From Dehalococcoidia bacterium (GTDB lineage Bacteria > Chloroflexota > Dehalococcoidia > DSTF01 > JACRBR01): DNA of 28,798 bases. The notes beneath the pieces were generated by a model. The model worked only from the letters and a program-made list of their open reading frames with translations, was not told the DNA's origin and did no database searches. Position numbers and translations under genes: made by a program. Where the stretch lies: NCBI GenBank assembly GCA_035574215.1, contig DATLZC010000109.1, forward strand, positions 1-28,798, written 5' to 3'. Shown here piece after piece: positions 7,140 to 13,643 of this stretch; positions within the stretch are counted from its first letter, which is position 1; the number at the start of each line of letters is the position of its first letter.

Positions 7140-8789
7140 TCAGGGGCCTGGCGCTGTTGGCGGAAGGTAATACGCGACGAATTCCACTGTCCCGTTGTGG
7201 CGTGACTCCGTAACCGTGCCTCCCGGGTACAGACGCGTCAACCGCGAAAGGTACTCCTCGTACGGCGGAAGCAGAACGTAGGCGACGCCAGTGTCACGCG
7301 TTCGCCGCAGGTCGAACGTGCCGAATTCTCTCGAACGGTCTTCTCCCTCGACTCCCGGCGCGAGGTAACGGCGCGTTTCATAACCGAAGCCCCAGCGCGC
7401 GCTGTAGAAATACACGTACGTGTCGTCGGGCAGGTCCTGCATGTACTCCGACGCCTTCGCGAGTTCCACAGCGAACGTGAAGCGTGCGAGGCCGGTATCT
7501 GGAAAATCCCGGAAATAGTACGTGAGCGCTTGGTAGCCGATGAACGCGACGACTCCCGCCACGGCCACTCGCGCCAGGATTTGCCAGTCTCGGGCGAACG
7601 ACTGCGCGCGGTCCCATAACGTTGCGAGAGGCACCGCGGCGATCACCGCGACGAACGGTACGAGGCCCAGCGATCGGCGAAACAGCGCGTTATAGGTAAA
7701 TTCGCTGGCCAACGGAAGGAAGACGAACGCTGCCAGGACGGTGGCGGCCGCCGGATTGCGCCACTTCGAGGCCAACATGAGAAGGCCCACAGCAACGAGG
7801 ACGACAGAAGCGCGATCCACCATGGCGCGCGCGCCAGCGGCGTCTGCGCCGTCAGGCTCGCCTTTCCAGAACACGGCCGAGTAGAAATCCTGGACTCGCC
7901 CGAGTGAGAAGGTGAGTTTCTCCCACGCGTCTTTCGACTTCCATTCCTCGCTCTCGAAGACCGACACGGTGCGGTGATGATTCAGGTAGCCGTTCTGTGG
8001 GTCGGCGGCATACTGAATCATCGGGAGCGCTGCGATGACCGCCGTGACGGCGAACAGCGTGAGACAGAAGGCGGGCCGCGCGATCGCGCGAAGCCACCCA
8101 CGCCAGCGGTTCTGCCCGGTCTCAGCCGCCGCGAACCATATCAGCGCGACGGCCACCGGGAGCGCGAACACGGGGTACGCGTTGTAAGTGTAGATCCCTG
8201 CCCCGAACGAAAGGCCCGCTGCCGCGAATGCAAACGGACTTCGGCTTCGAATGCCCCAAAACAGGAACGCGAGGGTGATCAGCTCCACGAGGGGCCACGA
8301 AATGACCATGAAGCCGATGCGGCTGTAATGCAGGTGCCAGAGGCTCACCGAGAGGAGGACCGCGGCGAATATCCCGACGGTCTTGGAGAACATGGTTCGG
8401 AAAGCAAGATACGCAAGGGGCACCGTGAGGGTAGCTAAGACTGCCATGGGCAGTCTGACCGCCAAAATGTCCGGGCCGAACAGCTTCTCGAAGGGCGCTA
8501 CGAAGTAGAGAGGGCCGGCCGGCTGCCCGAGCGCGCTCCCCACGTACGGCCCGATCCACCCCTCTCGCAGGATGCGTTCGGCGTCCAGCCCTGTCCATCC
8601 CTCGTCGCCGTGGAGTCCGGGAGGAATCTTCGTGAGTAACACGAGCCGGGGCACCGCCGCGAAGATGGTGAGCCCGGCAAGCAGGAGCGCCTCGGCCCGC
8701 AGGCCGGCGAGTTTACCGAGGGCGACCTTCGACAGGGACCGGAGCGCCCATCGCTCGCGGGTTGTGCTCGTGCTGACCGTCGTAGCCAC
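7140..8789 (-). CDS. GT-C fold membrane glycosyltransferase (ArnT/PMT_2/GT39-like)
   Basis: PPGLHGDEG acidic motif after TM1, AVRLPMA, WHLHYSRIGF, GIYTYNAY, and a C-terminal extracytoplasmic domain. GTG start after GAGGTAGGA. Confidence 0.8.
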   Translation of the reverse strand: MATTVSTSTTRERWALRSLSKVALGKLAGLRAEALLLAGLTIFAAVPRLVLLTKIPPGLHGDEGWTGLDAERILREGWIGPYVGSALGQPAGPLYFVAPFEKLFGPDILAVRLPMAVLATLTVPLAYLAFRTMFSKTVGIFAAVLLSVSLWHLHYSRIGFMVISWPLVELITLAFLFWGIRSRSPFAFAAAGLSFGAGIYTYNAYPVFALPVAVALIWFAAAETGQNRWRGWLRAIARPAFCLTLFAVTAVIAALPMIQYAADPQNGYLNHHRTVSVFESEEWKSKDAWEKLTFSLGRVQDFYSAVFWKGEPDGADAAGARAMVDRASVVLVAVGLLMLASKWRNPAAATVLAAFVFLPLASEFTYNALFRRSLGLVPFVAVIAAVPLATLWDRAQSFARDWQILARVAVAGVVAFIGYQALTYYFRDFPDTGLARFTFAVELAKASEYMQDLPDDTYVYFYSARWGFGYETRRYLAPGVEGEDRSREFGTFDLRRTRDTGVAYVLLPPYEEYLSRLTRLYPGGTVTESRHNGTVEFVAYYLPPTAPGP

Positions 8790-8924
8790 GCCGTCCTACC
8801 TCGAGGGTGCGAGCAGGCTTTCGCTCCCTTGGCACGAAGCTTAACCCGCCCAGGCCACCTACGTCACCCGCGGCCCATGGCTACATATCGGCAGGCGGCG
8901 AGGCTTCCACCATGGCTATGCTAG

Positions 8925-9728
8925 CTAGCCCTTCATCGGCTTGTCGGCGGAGATGTAGGCGCTGGTCCAGCCGCGGCCGTCGTCGGGGCCGTGCTCGATG
9001 CGGATGCGCTCGAAGCCGGCGGCGCGCAGCTTCTCCGCGAATGCGCCCACCGTCAGCGCGCCAGCCACGCATCCCGCCCATGACGCCAGGTCGCTCTGCT
9101 CCTCCGGCGTGGGCTCTCGCACCCACACGATGTCCGACACGCGGAAGCGCCCGCCCGGCTTCAGCACCCGGTACGCCTCGCGCAACACGGCGTCCTTGTC
9201 GGGTGAGAGGTTGATCACGCAGTTCGAGATGATGACGTCGACGCTGCCGGAGTCGACCGGGAGCGCCTCGATCTCGCCGGCGCGGAACTCGACGTTGGAG
9301 GCGCCGACCTTCGCCAGGTTGCGGCGGGCGAGCTCGAGCATCTCAGGGGTCATGTCGACGCCGATGACCCGGCCCGCGGGACCCACCCGCTGCGCCGCCA
9401 GGAAGCAGTCGAGCCCGGCGCCGCTGCCTAGGTCGAGCACGGTTTCGCCTTCGCGAAGCTCGGCCAGCGCGATGGGATTCCCGCACCCGAGCGACAGCTC
9501 CGCGACGGTCTCGGGCACGGCGCCCAGCTCCTGCGCCGAGTACAGCCGCTGCGCCCAGCTCGACACTTCCTCTTGCGGCGCTTCGGCCGGGCCGCAGCAG
9601 GGGTCGCAGCAGGACGCGGACGTCTCGATCAGGGGGATGGGGTCTTCCTGTTGGAGCCGCTCGCGGGCCCGCGCGGCGTAGCGCTCCTTAACCGCAATCT
9701 TGATCTCGTCGGCAGGCGGATTCGGCAT
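8925..9728 (-). CDS. arsM: Arsenite S-adenosylmethionine methyltransferase
   Basis: SLGCGNP, SAM-binding VLDLGSGAGLDC, GVDMTPEML, DVIISNCVINL, LKPGGR and WAGCVAG carry the conserved ArsM cysteines. There is also an N-terminal CCDPCC. Confidence 0.9.
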   Translation of the reverse strand: MPNPPADEIKIAVKERYAARARERLQQEDPIPLIETSASCCDPCCGPAEAPQEEVSSWAQRLYSAQELGAVPETVAELSLGCGNPIALAELREGETVLDLGSGAGLDCFLAAQRVGPAGRVIGVDMTPEMLELARRNLAKVGASNVEFRAGEIEALPVDSGSVDVIISNCVINLSPDKDAVLREAYRVLKPGGRFRVSDIVWVREPTPEEQSDLASWAGCVAGALTVGAFAEKLRAAGFERIRIEHGPDDGRGWTSAYISADKPMKG

Positions 9729-10101
9729 GACTCGCTCCTTTCGATTCGCCCGCGGGGCCGAGCAGCCCCCTGGTGACGGCTTGCGACAGATAGGGGAGGA
9801 CGTGGCCCCAGGCCTCGGCGGCGACGCGGTACGCCCGCCAGCCGCGCTCGGTGAGCTCGCAGACCTTGCGGACGCGCGCCCCCTGGCGTTCCTCGCGGCA
9901 GACGATGTACCCGCCGAGCGTGAGTTCGCGGATGGTCGGGTAGATCATGGCGTCGGAAGGCTCGCAGCAATGGTCGCACGCCTCTGCGATGGCCCTGGCG
10001 AGCTCGTACCCGTGCATCGGGCGCTCCGCGAGGCTCGCGAGCAGGAAGAAGCGCGAGGCGCTGCGGGCGATGAGGGTATCCCAGTGAGCGCGGGTGTCCA
10101 T
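9688..10101 (-). CDS. PadR-family winged-helix transcriptional regulator, Cys-rich
   Basis: PadR hallmarks LLASLAERPMHGYELARAI, MIYPTIREL and RKVCELTERG. It overlaps the arsM start by 41 nt and contains the arsM SD sequence (AAAGGAG). Confidence 0.8.
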   Translation of the reverse strand: MDTRAHWDTLIARSASRFFLLASLAERPMHGYELARAIAEACDHCCEPSDAMIYPTIRELTLGGYIVCREERQGARVRKVCELTERGWRAYRVAAEAWGHVLPYLSQAVTRGLLGPAGESKGASHAESACRRDQDCG

Positions 10102-10111
10102 AGCTAGGTCA

Positions 10112-10141
10112 ACGATATATCGGCGGGCTAGGTGTCGTCAA
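10112..10141 (-). promoter_or_regulatory. Sigma70-type promoter of the padR-arsM unit
   Basis: Minus strand TTGACG-N18-TATCGT, ending 10 nt before the padR ATG. The palindrome CGATATATCG overlaps the -10. Confidence 0.55.
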
Positions 10142-10176
10142 GGGCGGGGAAATCCAGTGGGCCCGGACGTGCCGCG

Positions 10177-10512
10177 TCACAGGCCCTCGCGCACCAGCGA
10201 GTCGAGCGCAAACTCGAAGTAGGTGACCGCCTCGGAGAAGCTGAACCGTTCGCGGTCGTACACCACCGATGGAGGTCCGTCGGCGGGCGTCTCGAGGTGA
10301 GCGCCGAGCCGGGGAAACGCGAAGATGCGGAAGCGGCCCATGGGACCTTCCAGAAGCTCCGGCTTTCGCTTGAGCAGCTCGACGTACGCCTCCGCGGCGC
10401 GGCGGACGACGTCGGGGTAGTTTCCCGCGACGAGCGAGGCATGGGCGGCGCGCAGCGATTCGCGCAGCGCTTCGTCCTGGATCCGTTCGAGCTTCGCCGG
10501 AGGCGCAGGCAT
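10177..10512 (-). CDS. Hypothetical protein (111 aa), last gene of the di-iron operon
   Basis: ATG 2 nt after the LLM stop, with normal codon usage and protein-like composition. I recognise no family. Confidence 0.7.
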   Translation of the reverse strand: MPAPPAKLERIQDEALRESLRAAHASLVAGNYPDVVRRAAEAYVELLKRKPELLEGPMGRFRIFAFPRLGAHLETPADGPPSVVYDRERFSFSEAVTYFEFALDSLVREGL

Positions 10513-10514
10513 GG

Positions 10515-11759
10515 TCAGATGGAGGAATTGACCGGGTACTCCACGCCGTCGAGCTGCCGCTCGCGCCAGCGCCGGTGCTGTTCGTGGCGCTCCTTGAACT
10601 CAGGGAGCACCTTCGTCCCGAACAGGTACAGCGAGTCCATGATGTCCTCGTGCTTCCGGGCGCCCGCCTGCGCGACGAAGATCATGAGGTCGAGGTGCGC
10701 GTCCTCGTACTTGCGCAGCGTCTCGCGGATGAACGCCGGGCTGCCGATACAGCCGCCCCGGCGGGACGCCCGCCAGAGGGCCCGCTGCACTTCGTCGGCG
10801 GGCTCTTCTTCGCTCGCGCCGCCGGCGTAGCCGCCGAACCCCCGGCCGCCGAAGATGTCCATGCGCCGCTCCGGGGGCGTCTCGAGGAACCGGCGGTACA
10901 GGTGGACCTTCGACGGCTCGTGGGCTGCGCCGAGGGGACTGTAGTAGTAGCCCAGAGAGTAGGCGAAGAACTGCGTGCCTTCCACGCCCTTTTCGATGGC
11001 TTCGTCGTCCGTCTCGCAGCACATGAGCGAGGACAGCACCGCGAGCGCCGGGTTGATCGCCTTGCCGATGGGGAAGCACTCCTCCCGGATGAGGCGATAG
11101 TAGTTCTCGACGCGCTCCTGCGCCTCCTCCGGCGTCTCGAAGGCGAAGCCGAGGGAGCCCATGCCCAGGCGGGCGGCGACCATCGTTGTTTCGCGCCGGG
11201 ACGACGCCACCCAGAGCGGCGGGTGCGGCTTCTGCAGCGGCTTCGGGATGACGTTGCGGGGCGGCATGCCGAAGTACGCGCCCTCGAACCCCGGATACGG
11301 GCTCGAGGTCATCATGTTCACGCACTCGCGGGTCGCCTCCTCCCACATCATCTTCTTCTCTTCGCGGGCGACGCCGAACCCGCCGAGCTCCATCTCCGAA
11401 GACGACTCCCCGGTGCCGAATTCGACCCGCCCGTCGCTCACAAGGTCCAGCGTGGCGATGCGCTCGGCGACGCGGGCGGGGTGGTTGTACCGTGGCGGCA
11501 TGAGGACGATGCCGTGCCCGAGCCGGATGTGCTTCGTGCGCTGGCTGGCGGCGGCGAGGAACACCTCGGGCGCCGAGGAGTGCGAGTACTCTTCGAGGAA
11601 GTGGTGCTCGACCTCGAAGACGTAGTCGAAGCCCAGTTTGTCGGCGAGCTCGATCTGCTCGAGCGCGTCCTTCAGCAGGCGATGCTCGGCGTCGGGGTCC
11701 CAGTCGTCGCGGTCGGGCGGACGGGGGAGCTGGTGTTCGTAGAAGAGGCCGAATTTCAT
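10515..11759 (-). CDS. LLM-class (luciferase-like) flavin-dependent oxidoreductase/monooxygenase
   Basis: MKFGLFYE, ELADKLGFDYVFEVEHHF, SAPEVFLAAASQRTKHIRLGHG, HPARVAERIATLDLVSDGRVEFGTG and PKPLQKPHPPLWVA. SD GGGAGG upstream. Confidence 0.9.
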   Translation of the reverse strand: MKFGLFYEHQLPRPPDRDDWDPDAEHRLLKDALEQIELADKLGFDYVFEVEHHFLEEYSHSSAPEVFLAAASQRTKHIRLGHGIVLMPPRYNHPARVAERIATLDLVSDGRVEFGTGESSSEMELGGFGVAREEKKMMWEEATRECVNMMTSSPYPGFEGAYFGMPPRNVIPKPLQKPHPPLWVASSRRETTMVAARLGMGSLGFAFETPEEAQERVENYYRLIREECFPIGKAINPALAVLSSLMCCETDDEAIEKGVEGTQFFAYSLGYYYSPLGAAHEPSKVHLYRRFLETPPERRMDIFGGRGFGGYAGGASEEEPADEVQRALWRASRRGGCIGSPAFIRETLRKYEDAHLDLMIFVAQAGARKHEDIMDSLYLFGTKVLPEFKERHEQHRRWRERQLDGVEYPVNSSI

Positions 11760-11792
11760 GGTGGCGTCCTCCCTCGGCGGGATGCGATCACG

Positions 11793-12416
11793 TCAACGGC
11801 CGCCGGTCACGCCGCCCGAGCGGACCAACAGGTCCTCGAGGTGCATCTGCCATTCGAGCGCTGTGCGGCGCTTCTGCGGCGTGTCGGCGAGCTCTTCGTA
11901 GATGGCCTGGCCCCACTGGATGTGCCGCTCTTCCTCGAGCAGGATGTGCTCCAGGATGCGGACGGTGGGCGCGTCGCACACCTTGTCCGTGACGAGCAGA
12001 TGGTGGCGGTAGTACACGGCGAGGTGCGTCTTGAGGACGCGATACAGCCCGACGATGCGCAGGAGCTCGTCGTCCTGCAGCATCATCGTCTCGCAGAAGC
12101 GCACGAACTCCTCGTTGGGCGGCTCGGCCCGTGTCGACGAGCGTAGAGTCGGCGGGACGTCCATCTCCATCCCCTCGGTCACGCGGAGCTCGGGGAGCCG
12201 CTGCCCGAGCCAGTACGAGTGGATGGAGTCGTGGTAGCAGTGCTCGCCGAAGGCGAACTTGACTTTGATGGTGGGGCAGGAGGAAGCCCACCCTCCCAGG
12301 GCCGTCATGCAGACGTTCTCGGCGTAGCGGTAGTTCAGGATACGGCGGGCGTTCTCGTCCACGGAGAAGGCGCCGCCGATGTGCCGCGGGTCGACGGCGA
12401 GTTCCAGCGCTCCCAT
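11793..12416 (-). CDS. Ferritin-like four-helix-bundle protein with a degenerate di-metal ligand set
   Basis: SD TGAGGAG is 7 nt before the ATG at 12416 (alternative ATG at 12422). The helical pattern includes E33, D63xxH66 and DAPTVRILEHILLEEERH (E162xxH165). Confidence 0.65.
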   Translation of the reverse strand: MGALELAVDPRHIGGAFSVDENARRILNYRYAENVCMTALGGWASSCPTIKVKFAFGEHCYHDSIHSYWLGQRLPELRVTEGMEMDVPPTLRSSTRAEPPNEEFVRFCETMMLQDDELLRIVGLYRVLKTHLAVYYRHHLLVTDKVCDAPTVRILEHILLEEERHIQWGQAIYEELADTPQKRRTALEWQMHLEDLLVRSGGVTGGR

Positions 12417-12427
12417 GTTCATGCTCC

Positions 12428-12754
12428 TCAGGCCGGCGCGGGCGCCTCGCGGAGACGGGCCAGCGCAGCCGCCACTTGCGCCTTGCGCGCCAGCTTCGCT
12501 GCGTGCTGCCGGGCGGCCCAGGCCCGCGCCTTCTCCTTCGCCCGCTCGAGCTGCTCGGGCGACGGCCGGTACGGGTCCTCGTCGATGCAGTCCACGGGGC
12601 ACACCTTCACGCAGATCCCGCAGTCGATGCACCATTCCGGGTCGACGACATGCGTACGGTGACCCGTCGAAAAGTATCGGATGCACTCGGTGGGGCAGGC
12701 GCGCCGGCACCAGCTACAGTTGATGCACGCCGCGAGGTCGATGCGGACGGCCAC
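12428..12754 (-). CDS. 2[4Fe-4S] dicluster ferredoxin with a C-terminal basic/Ala-rich helix
   Basis: Two CxxCxxCxxxCP motifs: CINCSWCRRACP and CIDCGICVKVCP. GTG start 3 nt after the upstream stop. Confidence 0.9.
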   Translation of the reverse strand: MAVRIDLAACINCSWCRRACPTECIRYFSTGHRTHVVDPEWCIDCGICVKVCPVDCIDEDPYRPSPEQLERAKEKARAWAARQHAAKLARKAQVAAALARLREAPAPA

Positions 12755-12757
12755 GGC

Positions 12758-13579
12758 TCACGCGGCCCCTTCCTGCCCCTGGGCGACCGCGCCCGTGCCG
12801 AGCGCGGCCATCCCCCGGTCCATTTCCTCCGCGAAGAACCGCCGCAGCTCCTCGGTCTGTTCGCCCGAGAGCCGCGCCCGGAACCCTTCGGACAGCGCGT
12901 GCGCGCGCAGCGCCCGTTGCTCCTTCTCGGGGTCGCCCTCGACGAGCTCCTTGATGAAGTAGTCGCCGATGGCGGTGTGAGTAACCTCGTCCGCCCAGTT
13001 GTAGTCGTAGACGTGCGCCATGAGCCGGTCGCCGATCTTCTCACCGACGAACGAAGTGTCCTTGAAGAGCTGCAACGCCGCTCCTTCGAGGGACACGTTC
13101 GTCATCGAGAGGCTCACCACCGGGTCGCGCATAATCTGCTGCACCTGGTCGGGCATGAGGGTGCCGGCGGCGCCACCGCCCGCCAGCGTGTCGGGATACT
13201 CGCCGATGCGCCCTCCGTACGATTCCAGCAGCTCCTTCCCGAGCCAGGCGTGGCGCACTTCGTCCCAGGTCTGGCGGGCCATGGCCATGATTAGCGACCA
13301 GGGAACGGGCCACTCCTGCCACTCGCAGACCTTCCGGCTGAAGGCGTCGATGCCCGCGAACTCGGCGCTGACGATGCCGCTGACCAGCGCCTTCCTGAAC
13401 TCGAGGTTGTCGGGGTCGGCCAGGACCATCTGGCGCAGGAGCTGCAGGTCGTAGTTGGCGGCGTCGCCGAGCCGTGCCGCGAGGCTAGCCCGCTCAGCGT
13501 CGTCGATGACCGCGACGGGCCGATACGCCGGCTCCCGGCGCGACGGCAGCTCCCGGACGTGGTCGGCGAACTTCCCCAT
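12758..13579 (-). CDS. Ferritin-like (DUF455-like) di-iron carboxylate protein
   Basis: SD GGGAGG before the ATG at 13579. It has a full ligand set: E73, DE107xxH110 (WDEVRH), E165 and DE198xxH201 (ADEVTH). Confidence 0.75.
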   Translation of the reverse strand: MGKFADHVRELPSRREPAYRPVAVIDDAERASLAARLGDAANYDLQLLRQMVLADPDNLEFRKALVSGIVSAEFAGIDAFSRKVCEWQEWPVPWSLIMAMARQTWDEVRHAWLGKELLESYGGRIGEYPDTLAGGGAAGTLMPDQVQQIMRDPVVSLSMTNVSLEGAALQLFKDTSFVGEKIGDRLMAHVYDYNWADEVTHTAIGDYFIKELVEGDPEKEQRALRAHALSEGFRARLSGEQTEELRRFFAEEMDRGMAALGTGAVAQGQEGAA

Positions 13580-13614
13580 CGGCGTCCTCCCGGGCGTGTG
13601 CGGGTAGTGCAGCG

Positions 13615-13643
13615 AGTATAGTACGGCGGGCCCCATTCGTAAA
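13615..13643 (-). promoter_or_regulatory. Sigma70-type promoter of the di-iron/ferredoxin/LLM operon
   Basis: Minus strand TTTACG-N17-TATACT, 35 nt upstream of the ATG at 13579. Confidence 0.6.

Follow-up and report, generated by a model that had tools for sequence, protein, structure and literature searches.

Five genes of an uncultured Dehalococcoidia bacterium (Chloroflexota) may well encode a ferredoxin-fed di-iron hydroxylase that forms part of an oxidative catabolic cluster, a reading to which we assign a probability of roughly 0.55. The genes lie in contig DATLZC010000109.1 of assembly GCA_035574215.1, within a stretch of 28,798 nt that was analyzed as a whole and is referred to below as the window. 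In the order in which they would be transcribed, they encode a ferritin-fold protein (A), a 2[4Fe-4S] ferredoxin (Fd), a second ferritin-fold protein (C), a luciferase-like protein (LLM) and a small helical protein (S). A and C would together form the hydroxylase (A·C) and Fd would supply its electrons, with LLM and S acting on the same substrate line. The sequence-only reading of this DNA that preceded the present analysis had not recognized the gene set as a characterized pathway; indeed, searches of Pfam, NCBIfam, sequences in the Protein Data Bank (PDB), protein folds and the literature returned no characterized system that matches it. The literature search likewise returned no functional study of DUF455 (PF04305), the Pfam family to which A is related.

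One genome per species was scanned for homologous loci, of which 169 were found and 79 distinct ones kept, and their neighborhoods were compared by tblastn with the five window proteins and by clustering of open reading frames (ORFs). C followed A within 1.2 kb in 66 of the 68 loci with enough flanking sequence, while Fd was located between A and C at 65 genome loci. A-Fd-C is, as such, a conserved core unit. In Methylomirabilota, A-like and C-like genes whose products are 34-40% identical to A and C lie side by side without Fd. A locus from this phylum (L084 5229-9061) presents a DUF455 gene (251 aa) and a C-like gene (323 aa), followed by genes for a biotin carboxylase, a biotin carrier protein and a DinB-family protein, again without a ferredoxin. 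In a phylum-wide sample of 301 genomes, besides the genome that holds the window (G000), only distant C-like matches were detected, mostly in frames of ~400-530 aa, the length of the fused form described below. The occurrence of the trio in its split form is thus limited to certain lineages.

Fusion proteins of 400-550 aa, comprising an N-terminal C-like domain and a C-terminal A-like DUF455 domain, were identified in Bacteroidota, Chloroflexota and other phyla. A search with a C profile returned 1369 cluster representatives, many of them in this range of lengths; when ten C-profile matches of such length were scanned, eight contained a DUF455 match in the C-terminal half, seven of these above the cut-off. 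In one such protein from Bacteroidota (P0134; 443 aa, annotated as a "DUF455 family protein" and scoring 98.6 bits on PF04305), residues 3-189 share 46% identity with C (E 1.7e-43), while the DUF455 domain (residues 263-411) aligns with the A profile with an hhalign probability of 98.7% (E 4.5e-16), with both ExxH motifs aligned. Because the joining of two domains in a fusion protein is classical evidence of interaction, A and C would work as one enzyme, and are predicted to form a heteromeric complex. The C-like domain of P0134 keeps the counterparts of E33, K129 and H131 and has lost those of D63, H66, E162 and H165, which fits the view that this domain is, in general, non-catalytic; in contrast, C of the clade represented in the window keeps both D63xxH66 and E162xxH165. 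In addition, a gene encoding a 95-aa 2[4Fe-4S] ferredoxin, 33% identical to Fd, is found directly upstream of a fused C-A gene in L086, such that the link to a ferredoxin recurs independently. In this region (L086 1963-5197), the fused C-A protein has 408 aa and is one of two tandem fused copies; the other, a DUF455-type protein of 424 aa, is encoded further along, after a small ORF of 72 aa.

The complete carboxylate ligand set that the sequence-only reading had assigned to A (E73, E107xxH110, E165 and E198xxH201) was found at the positions claimed. Across 41 sequences, extending down to 37% identity, E73, E107, H110, E198 and H201 are invariant, while E165 is conserved in at least 90%. In the AlphaFold2 model of A (mean predicted local distance difference test score [pLDDT] of 85.6), the ligand elements occupy mid-helix positions, one in each of the core helices spanning residues 59-87, 94-120, 153-182 and 185-213. 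A is thus a four-helix bundle with the E / ExxH / E / ExxH pattern that defines the ferritin-like superfamily, and is predicted to bind two irons in a di-iron site. Considered alone, A scores 28.1 bits on PF04305 (E 1.9e-6), under the gathering cut-off of 34.3 bits and hence outside the family by score, and no NCBIfam family matched it. Judging from the profile comparison with P0134, A is nonetheless homologous to bona fide DUF455 proteins and belongs to the uncharacterized DUF455 superfamily. More than 500 A homologues were retrieved, with PF04305 appearing in the precomputed Pfam column for nearly all of those listed, faintly wherever a strength was given. Wherever a product name was given, it was either "hypothetical protein" or "uncharacterized ferritin-like protein (DUF455 family)," and the few for which an organism was named come from metagenome-assembled genomes (MAGs) of Chloroflexota or Dehalococcoidia. 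The fold matches of A were generic ferritin, Dps and bacterioferritin bundles, together with thioferritin (Foldseek E of at least 0.02; VIA Z of ~14); PDB sequence searches with A, C and their profiles yielded nothing significant, and the look-alikes among AlphaFold DB clusters were unnamed or "DUF455" entries. As the fold-search lists of both A and C are flat, these are taken as showing fold class only.

A also occurs alone. G000 carries a second, solitary A paralogue on another contig (G000:C146:3004-3771, corresponding to L088 1459-2268), with neither Fd nor C beside it, and a solitary paralogue of ~60% identity is present in L054 (7001-7762), which comes from a near-identical MAG. Solo copies were seen in further genomes as well, the copy in L003 (6001-6810) adjoining a gene for a DAO-family oxidase.

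C is a distant paralogue of A in which the putative metal site is degenerate. When the two were compared by hhalign (E 5.6e-4), D63xxH66 of C fell on E107xxH110 of A and E162xxH165 on E198xxH201, with the invariant K129 falling on E165. With E33, C therefore holds residues at five of the six ferritin-like ligand positions, the third-helix glutamate having been replaced by K129, which is accompanied by H131. No Pfam family matched C at more than 14 bits, the score reached on DUF455; among 27 members of the C family, weak matches to DUF455 and to Ferritin were obtained in 18 and 15 cases, respectively. With the AlphaFold2 model of C (pLDDT 91.3) as query, Foldseek returned the non-catalytic beta chain of toluene 4-monooxygenase (T4moH chain B, TM score 0.71), PaaA/PaaC and TenA, while VIA returned proteins deposited as aldehyde-deformylating (5ux2, Z 18.0), the ToMOH beta chain B (16.3) and R2lox (16.0). 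The earlier proposal that A works with a homologous partner of the non-catalytic type is hence supported by the conservation of the trio, by the fusions and by this fold resemblance. Across 22 aligned Chloroflexota trio loci, C is 71-83% identical as compared with 55-70% for A, so that constraint is stronger on the presumed partner than on A. C ends in a conserved glycine-rich tail, commonly GGVTGG[R], that varies in diverged members; neither this tail, nor the conservation of C, its five ligand-position residues and the invariant K129 and H131, is explained by a purely structural role.

Between the two ferritin-like genes lies, as had been described, that of a dicluster ferredoxin with all eight cluster cysteines intact. 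These form two CxxCxxCxxxCP motifs (C10, C13, C16 and C20; C42, C45, C48 and C52), each residue being invariant in 12 sequences, and Fd scores 49 bits on Pfam Fer4 against a cut-off of 21.1, as expected of a 2[4Fe-4S] protein. Fd also presents a nearly invariant ninth cysteine (Cys56) and a basic, helical C-terminal tail.

The strongest indication that A-Fd-C is a ferredoxin-driven oxygenase came from a set of loci that were reached by following S homologues into other contigs and that were compared by tblastn. In L061 and L066, the genes are ordered dehydrogenase, LLM, S, A, Fd and C, followed by a carboxylesterase on the opposite strand (392 bits on the COesterase family in L061). In L093 and L094, the same dehydrogenase, LLM and S are followed instead by a cytochrome P450, a 64-aa ferredoxin and a DinB-family gene, with the carboxylesterase again on the opposite strand. 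L095 contains both oxygenase modules in tandem (7419-10832), with the P450 and its 64-aa ferredoxin preceding A, the 2[4Fe-4S] ferredoxin and C, all between the dehydrogenase-LLM-S genes and the carboxylesterase. Identity to the L093 copies is 76-80% for the dehydrogenase, 91-93% for LLM, 83-88% for S and 68-74% for the esterase. Elsewhere, a P450 gene abuts the trio on one side (P450-A-Fd-C in L046, L050 and L071) or the other (A-Fd-C-P450 in L060). These P450s are CYP107-like, their best solved relatives being PksS, PikC, EryF, vitamin D3 hydroxylase and CYP267B1, enzymes that hydroxylate bulky lipophilic molecules. That one conserved gene frame can accommodate A-Fd-C, the P450 module or the two together, a separate ferredoxin accompanying each, is what would be expected of redundant or consecutive oxygenases, and the slot common to A-Fd-C and P450 suggests that A·C hydroxylates a hydrophobic substrate.

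Turning to the remaining two genes, LLM scores 146.3 bits on PF00296 (cut-off 27.9) and is thus a member of that family. Against the NCBIfam subfamilies, whether of the F420 or the flavin mononucleotide (FMN) type, it reaches only 87-90 bits, far under their cut-offs. Its closest solved chains are RslO1 (7BIP, 98 bits), 2I7G, LuxA-type proteins and MsnO8; these relatives are FMN-dependent, with RslO1 and MsnO8 described as forming epoxides and needing a separate flavin reductase (PMC8093152). Since G000 encodes CofD and CofH of F420 synthesis, F420 would be available, and the flavin cofactor of LLM may be either FMN or F420. S matched no known family in the searches made, yet 537 homologues were retrieved and the alignment contains 22 invariant columns at 33-66% identity, such that S is, on sequence grounds, a real conserved small protein. 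The look-alikes of its model are helical DUF4145/Abi_C-type domains (TM scores of 0.6-0.7), which offer a weak lead. In the loci followed through its homologues, S always comes directly after an orthologous LLM, and so belongs with LLM rather than with A and C. For this reason, the idea that S serves as an effector comparable to MmoB or PaaB was rejected.

Flanking sequence was sufficient on either side of the trio at 48 loci; at 27 of these, an LLM of the same cluster lies within 7 kb, directly adjacent in 22 cases. Three arrangements were distinguished. In the first, as in the window, the order is A-Fd-C-LLM-S, with LLM being 75-88% identical (e.g., L029, L043, L059 and L091, as well as L089, with an insert). 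In the second, found in L061-L066, an LLM of 64-70% identity and S precede the trio. The third, seen at 16 loci, comprises A-Fd-C followed by an LLM paralogue of ~50% identity without S, often with a divergent MarR gene upstream and genes for a DinB-family protein, a short-chain dehydrogenase and an acyl-coenzyme A (CoA) dehydrogenase downstream. A short-chain dehydrogenase gene recurs in all three. In total, a MarR gene adjoins the trio at 28 loci. LLM together with S is therefore a frequent, non-random but dispensable companion of A-Fd-C. Two operons that otherwise resemble that of the window have a PDDEXK_3 nuclease-like insertion separating C from LLM (L089 5129-5530 and L090 375-776). In one lineage, represented by L001, L002, L006, L007, L009, L010, L023 and L070, a PNPOx-like split-barrel flavin or F420 protein (~131-138 aa) is encoded directly upstream of A-Fd-C and no LLM is present, so that the partner of the trio comes from either of two protein families, each of which has F420-dependent members.

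The proposal made from sequence alone that all five genes form one pathway accordingly holds in part. The neighborhood comparison upheld A-Fd-C, and LLM adjoins the trio in three gene orders; as no LLM lies within 7 kb in 21 of the 48 cases, the five genes do not make up an obligatory unit. It could be argued that two independent modules are merely neighbors here, namely a self-contained A-Fd-C and an unrelated flavoenzyme pair, LLM and S, kept beside it by shared ancestry. The trios that lack a nearby LLM are what this would predict, as are three genomes (G301-G303) in which a PNPOx-like gene precedes A-Fd-C and no full-length LLM orthologue exists, two others (G304 and G305) in which the orthologue is elsewhere in the genome, the many LLM paralogues (eight genes in G000 and 42-60 first-look candidates in the other genomes), and the association of S with LLM rather than with A or C. 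Still, LLM genes from a single cluster immediately adjoin the trio in three different arrangements, and do so in lineages whose A proteins are only 50-68% identical; in the window, C, LLM and S are separated by only 33 and 2 nt with no terminator-like site; and one and the same dehydrogenase/LLM/S/esterase frame holds either A-Fd-C or the P450 system. We accordingly consider the independence of the two modules unlikely.

In the favored reading, A and C would constitute a heteromeric ferritin-fold enzyme in which A carries the O2-activating di-iron site, with C as its diverged paralogue and partner. General metabolism would reduce Fd, which would feed electrons one at a time to the diferric site, upon which O2 would be activated and one oxygen atom inserted at a C-H or C=C bond of the substrate, most likely a small hydrophobic molecule that is thereby hydroxylated or epoxidized. 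In the window genome, where A-Fd-C would be co-transcribed with LLM and S and act on the same substrate line, LLM with S would then oxygenate the product or its ketone, as two-component flavin monooxygenases do, a step proposed from gene content. Together with the dehydrogenase and carboxylesterase of the related loci, this would fit a route in which hydroxylation is followed by dehydrogenation, by oxygen insertion through the flavin-dependent enzyme and by hydrolysis. We infer the A·C complex, di-iron binding, O2 chemistry, order of steps and class of substrate alike.

The same components could be assembled differently. Were A·C to reduce peroxide (or O2) with electrons from ferredoxin, in the manner of rubrerythrin or bacterioferritin, it would have no organic substrate and would protect the cell, or an LLM or P450 prone to uncoupling. 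Such a role agrees with the proteins that A resembles most in structure (bacterioferritin, Dps-like proteins and thioferritin), as it does with a ferredoxin acting as direct donor and the location of the trio next to oxygenases that can leak peroxide. To our knowledge, however, peroxide-reducing ferritin-fold proteins are homo-oligomers that lack a degenerate paralogous partner, while heteromers with a partner subunit are typical of enzymes that oxidize substrates, such as PaaA/PaaC and the alpha and beta subunits of soluble di-iron monooxygenases. A moreover contains ~55 extra conserved N-terminal residues and extra helices, and the MarR, acyl-CoA dehydrogenase, dehydrogenase and esterase genes in the vicinity of the trio point to catabolism. 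A peroxide reductase is hence judged quite improbable. Given the heteromer, the dedicated ferredoxin and the catabolic neighbors, iron storage in a ferritin cage was likewise considered and deemed unlikely.

Still less probable, in our estimation, is that A·C modifies a macromolecule, be it a peptide, a protein or, as with the di-iron hydroxylase MiaE, transfer RNA (tRNA). DUF455 and MiaE belong to the same Pfam ferritin clan, one fusion protein gives a weak MiaE_2 match, and the sequences are conserved to a very high degree for an enzyme of peripheral catabolism. Yet the neighborhoods of the trio show no conserved tRNA gene and no conserved ORF resembling a precursor peptide, the recurrent neighbors being small-molecule enzymes and a MarR regulator.

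When set against known systems, A·C would, by analogy, function like the multicomponent di-iron oxygenases, as a variant of that kind, although it is a member of none of those compared. Related in sequence are the two-domain DUF455 proteins (~400-550 aa) and stand-alone PF04305 proteins, whose domains are homologous to C and A and none of which has been characterized; here, unlike in the fusions, the domains are encoded by separate genes, in the opposite order and with a ferredoxin between them, and A falls under the Pfam cut-off. The phenylacetyl-CoA 1,2-epoxidase system, PaaABC(D)E, likewise combines a ferritin-fold di-iron subunit (PaaA) and a paralogous partner without a full site (PaaC) with an Fe-S-mediated supply of electrons; the structural likeness to PaaA/PaaC (Foldseek E of ~5e-3 to 1e-2; VIA Z of 12-15) is accompanied, in some genomes, by acyl-CoA enzymes near the trio. 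However, A does not match PF05138 and only two of 27 C sequences do so, weakly (E 0.0078), placing both outside that family; no paaB-, paaD- or paaE-like genes were found in the window operon or related loci; and electrons are carried by a free 2[4Fe-4S] ferredoxin, where the Paa system relies on a reductase containing a [2Fe-2S] domain.

Similarly, the ligand set of A is of the same type as that of the soluble di-iron monooxygenases (PF02332; toluene, phenol and methane hydroxylases), whose non-catalytic beta subunits are the best matches of the C model among oxygenases. Nevertheless, membership at the level of sequence is absent, Phenol_Hydrox being listed for a few homologues only, as a second precomputed Pfam entry next to DUF455; A spans 273 aa rather than ~500, and gamma subunit, effector and NADH reductase are all missing, such that the system falls outside this group. 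Cyanobacterial aldehyde-deformylating oxygenase and acyl-acyl carrier protein (ACP) desaturase are also small ferritin-fold di-iron enzymes reduced directly by ferredoxin, and proteins deposited as aldehyde-deformylating are the top VIA match of C (5ux2, noted above) and rank ninth for A (8fhc, Z 13.2). Unlike A·C, these enzymes are homomeric and use a general [2Fe-2S] ferredoxin, and no sequence match to them was seen. Finally, camphor clusters of the P450cam type combine a P450 and its ferredoxin with an alcohol dehydrogenase, luciferase-like type II Baeyer-Villiger monooxygenases and lactone or ester hydrolysis. The dehydrogenase, LLM, S, P450, small ferredoxin and carboxylesterase genes of the related loci are, by analogy, alike in content, yet LLM matches 3,6-diketocamphane monooxygenase only weakly (E 7.8e-5) and the P450s are CYP107-like and not CYP101.

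Several points weigh against a ferredoxin-fed A·C hydroxylase working in line with LLM and S. The operon encodes no reductase, effector protein or substrate-specific gene. A lies under the DUF455 cut-off and its structural match list is flat, containing generic bundles only. C is more conserved than A and retains residues at five ligand positions, which is odd for a purely structural partner. The P450 and A-Fd-C coexist in L095 and so may perform different steps rather than one and the same. Many of the loci come from related MAGs, such that the counts given above overstate independence. Lastly, there are the 21 trios without a nearby LLM and the G301-G303 genomes.

A more far-reaching version of the hydroxylase reading, which we hold to be doubtful, would make A·C the first functionally placed DUF455-like member, that is, a heterodimeric ferredoxin-driven di-iron hydroxylase with which aerobic bacteria of the class Dehalococcoidia, in place of a P450 or alongside one, begin to oxidize alicyclic or aliphatic compounds. 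From there, the dehydrogenase, LLM with S and the esterase would take over the product, and C, with Lys129 and His131 at a former ligand position, would be an active participant, serving in substrate binding, gating or as a second metal site.

At the window locus itself, examination of the five genes confirmed all of the coordinates on which the operon had been proposed; each is on the minus strand, with intergenic gaps of 3, 11, 33 and 2 nt. The promoter that had been postulated ahead of A is also present, as a putative site, and is one of two promoter-like sites in 5.2 kb where shuffled sequences would give 0.2, the second being ahead of the next gene. In a scan for promoters and terminators, the minus strand of the operon was free of terminator-like sites. 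GGGAGG precedes the start codon of A (ATG at 13579), where homologues also begin, and GAGGAG precedes the start of C at 12416. Base composition is even, with a G+C content of 63-74% per 1 kb over the entire window. The sequencing runs that contain the stretch are DNA runs, plus one of unknown kind (0.19 share), with no usable RNA run among them. Downstream, the gene for a PadR-family regulator overlaps that for an arsenite methyltransferase by 41 nt, arsM thus being paired with PadR rather than with ArsR. The gene immediately upstream, which shares the strand of the operon and precedes its promoter-like site, encodes a DUF1015 protein that is not among the recurrent neighbor families at other loci. 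The positions of these features are listed in Table 1.

Table 1. The five-gene operon and adjacent features, in window coordinates.
Feature	Position	Strand	Basis or remark
DUF1015 protein, 471 aa	13772..15187	-	298 bits
Promoter-like site TTTACG-N17-TATACT, sigma-70-type	13615..13643	-	9/12 matches; 35 nt upstream of A start
A, 273-aa ferritin-fold protein, full di-iron carboxylate ligand set, divergent DUF455 relative	12758..13579	-	Ligand conservation, PF04305 score, hhalign, fold matches
Fd, 108-aa 2[4Fe-4S] ferredoxin, GTG start	12428..12754	-	Pfam Fer4, Cys motifs
C, 207-aa second ferritin-fold protein, distant A paralogue	11793..12416	-	hhalign, AlphaFold2 model, conservation
LLM, 414-aa luciferase-like (TIM-barrel) flavin or deazaflavin oxidoreductase, no curated subfamily	10515..11759	-	PF00296
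S, 111-aa conserved helical protein	10177..10512	-	Alignment, homologue search, neighborhoods
Second promoter-like site, ahead of PadR regulator gene	10141-10112		
PadR-family regulator	9688..10101	-	
Arsenite methyltransferase	8925..9728	-	307 bits on NF008823 (cut-off 263)

G000 (2.37 Mb, 85% complete) is the genome of an aerobe, with two heme-copper oxidase genes, and the metagenomes from which the DNA runs containing the stretch derive are of subsurface, sediment and hot-spring origin. Proteins of the DUF455 family and their relatives are distributed across several bacterial phyla and, judging by the names of structural look-alikes, eukaryotes, and no member with a known reaction was found. 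The operon and its relatives offer this family a concrete setting, namely, an enzyme split into A and C, a ferredoxin of its own, oxidative catabolic neighbors and a slot that a P450 system can fill. If true, the proposed assignment would represent a new architecture among di-iron oxygenases and, in practical terms, possibly a new ferredoxin-driven C-H hydroxylase. It would also help explain how poorly known aerobic Chloroflexota of soil, sediment and the subsurface attack hydrophobic organic matter.

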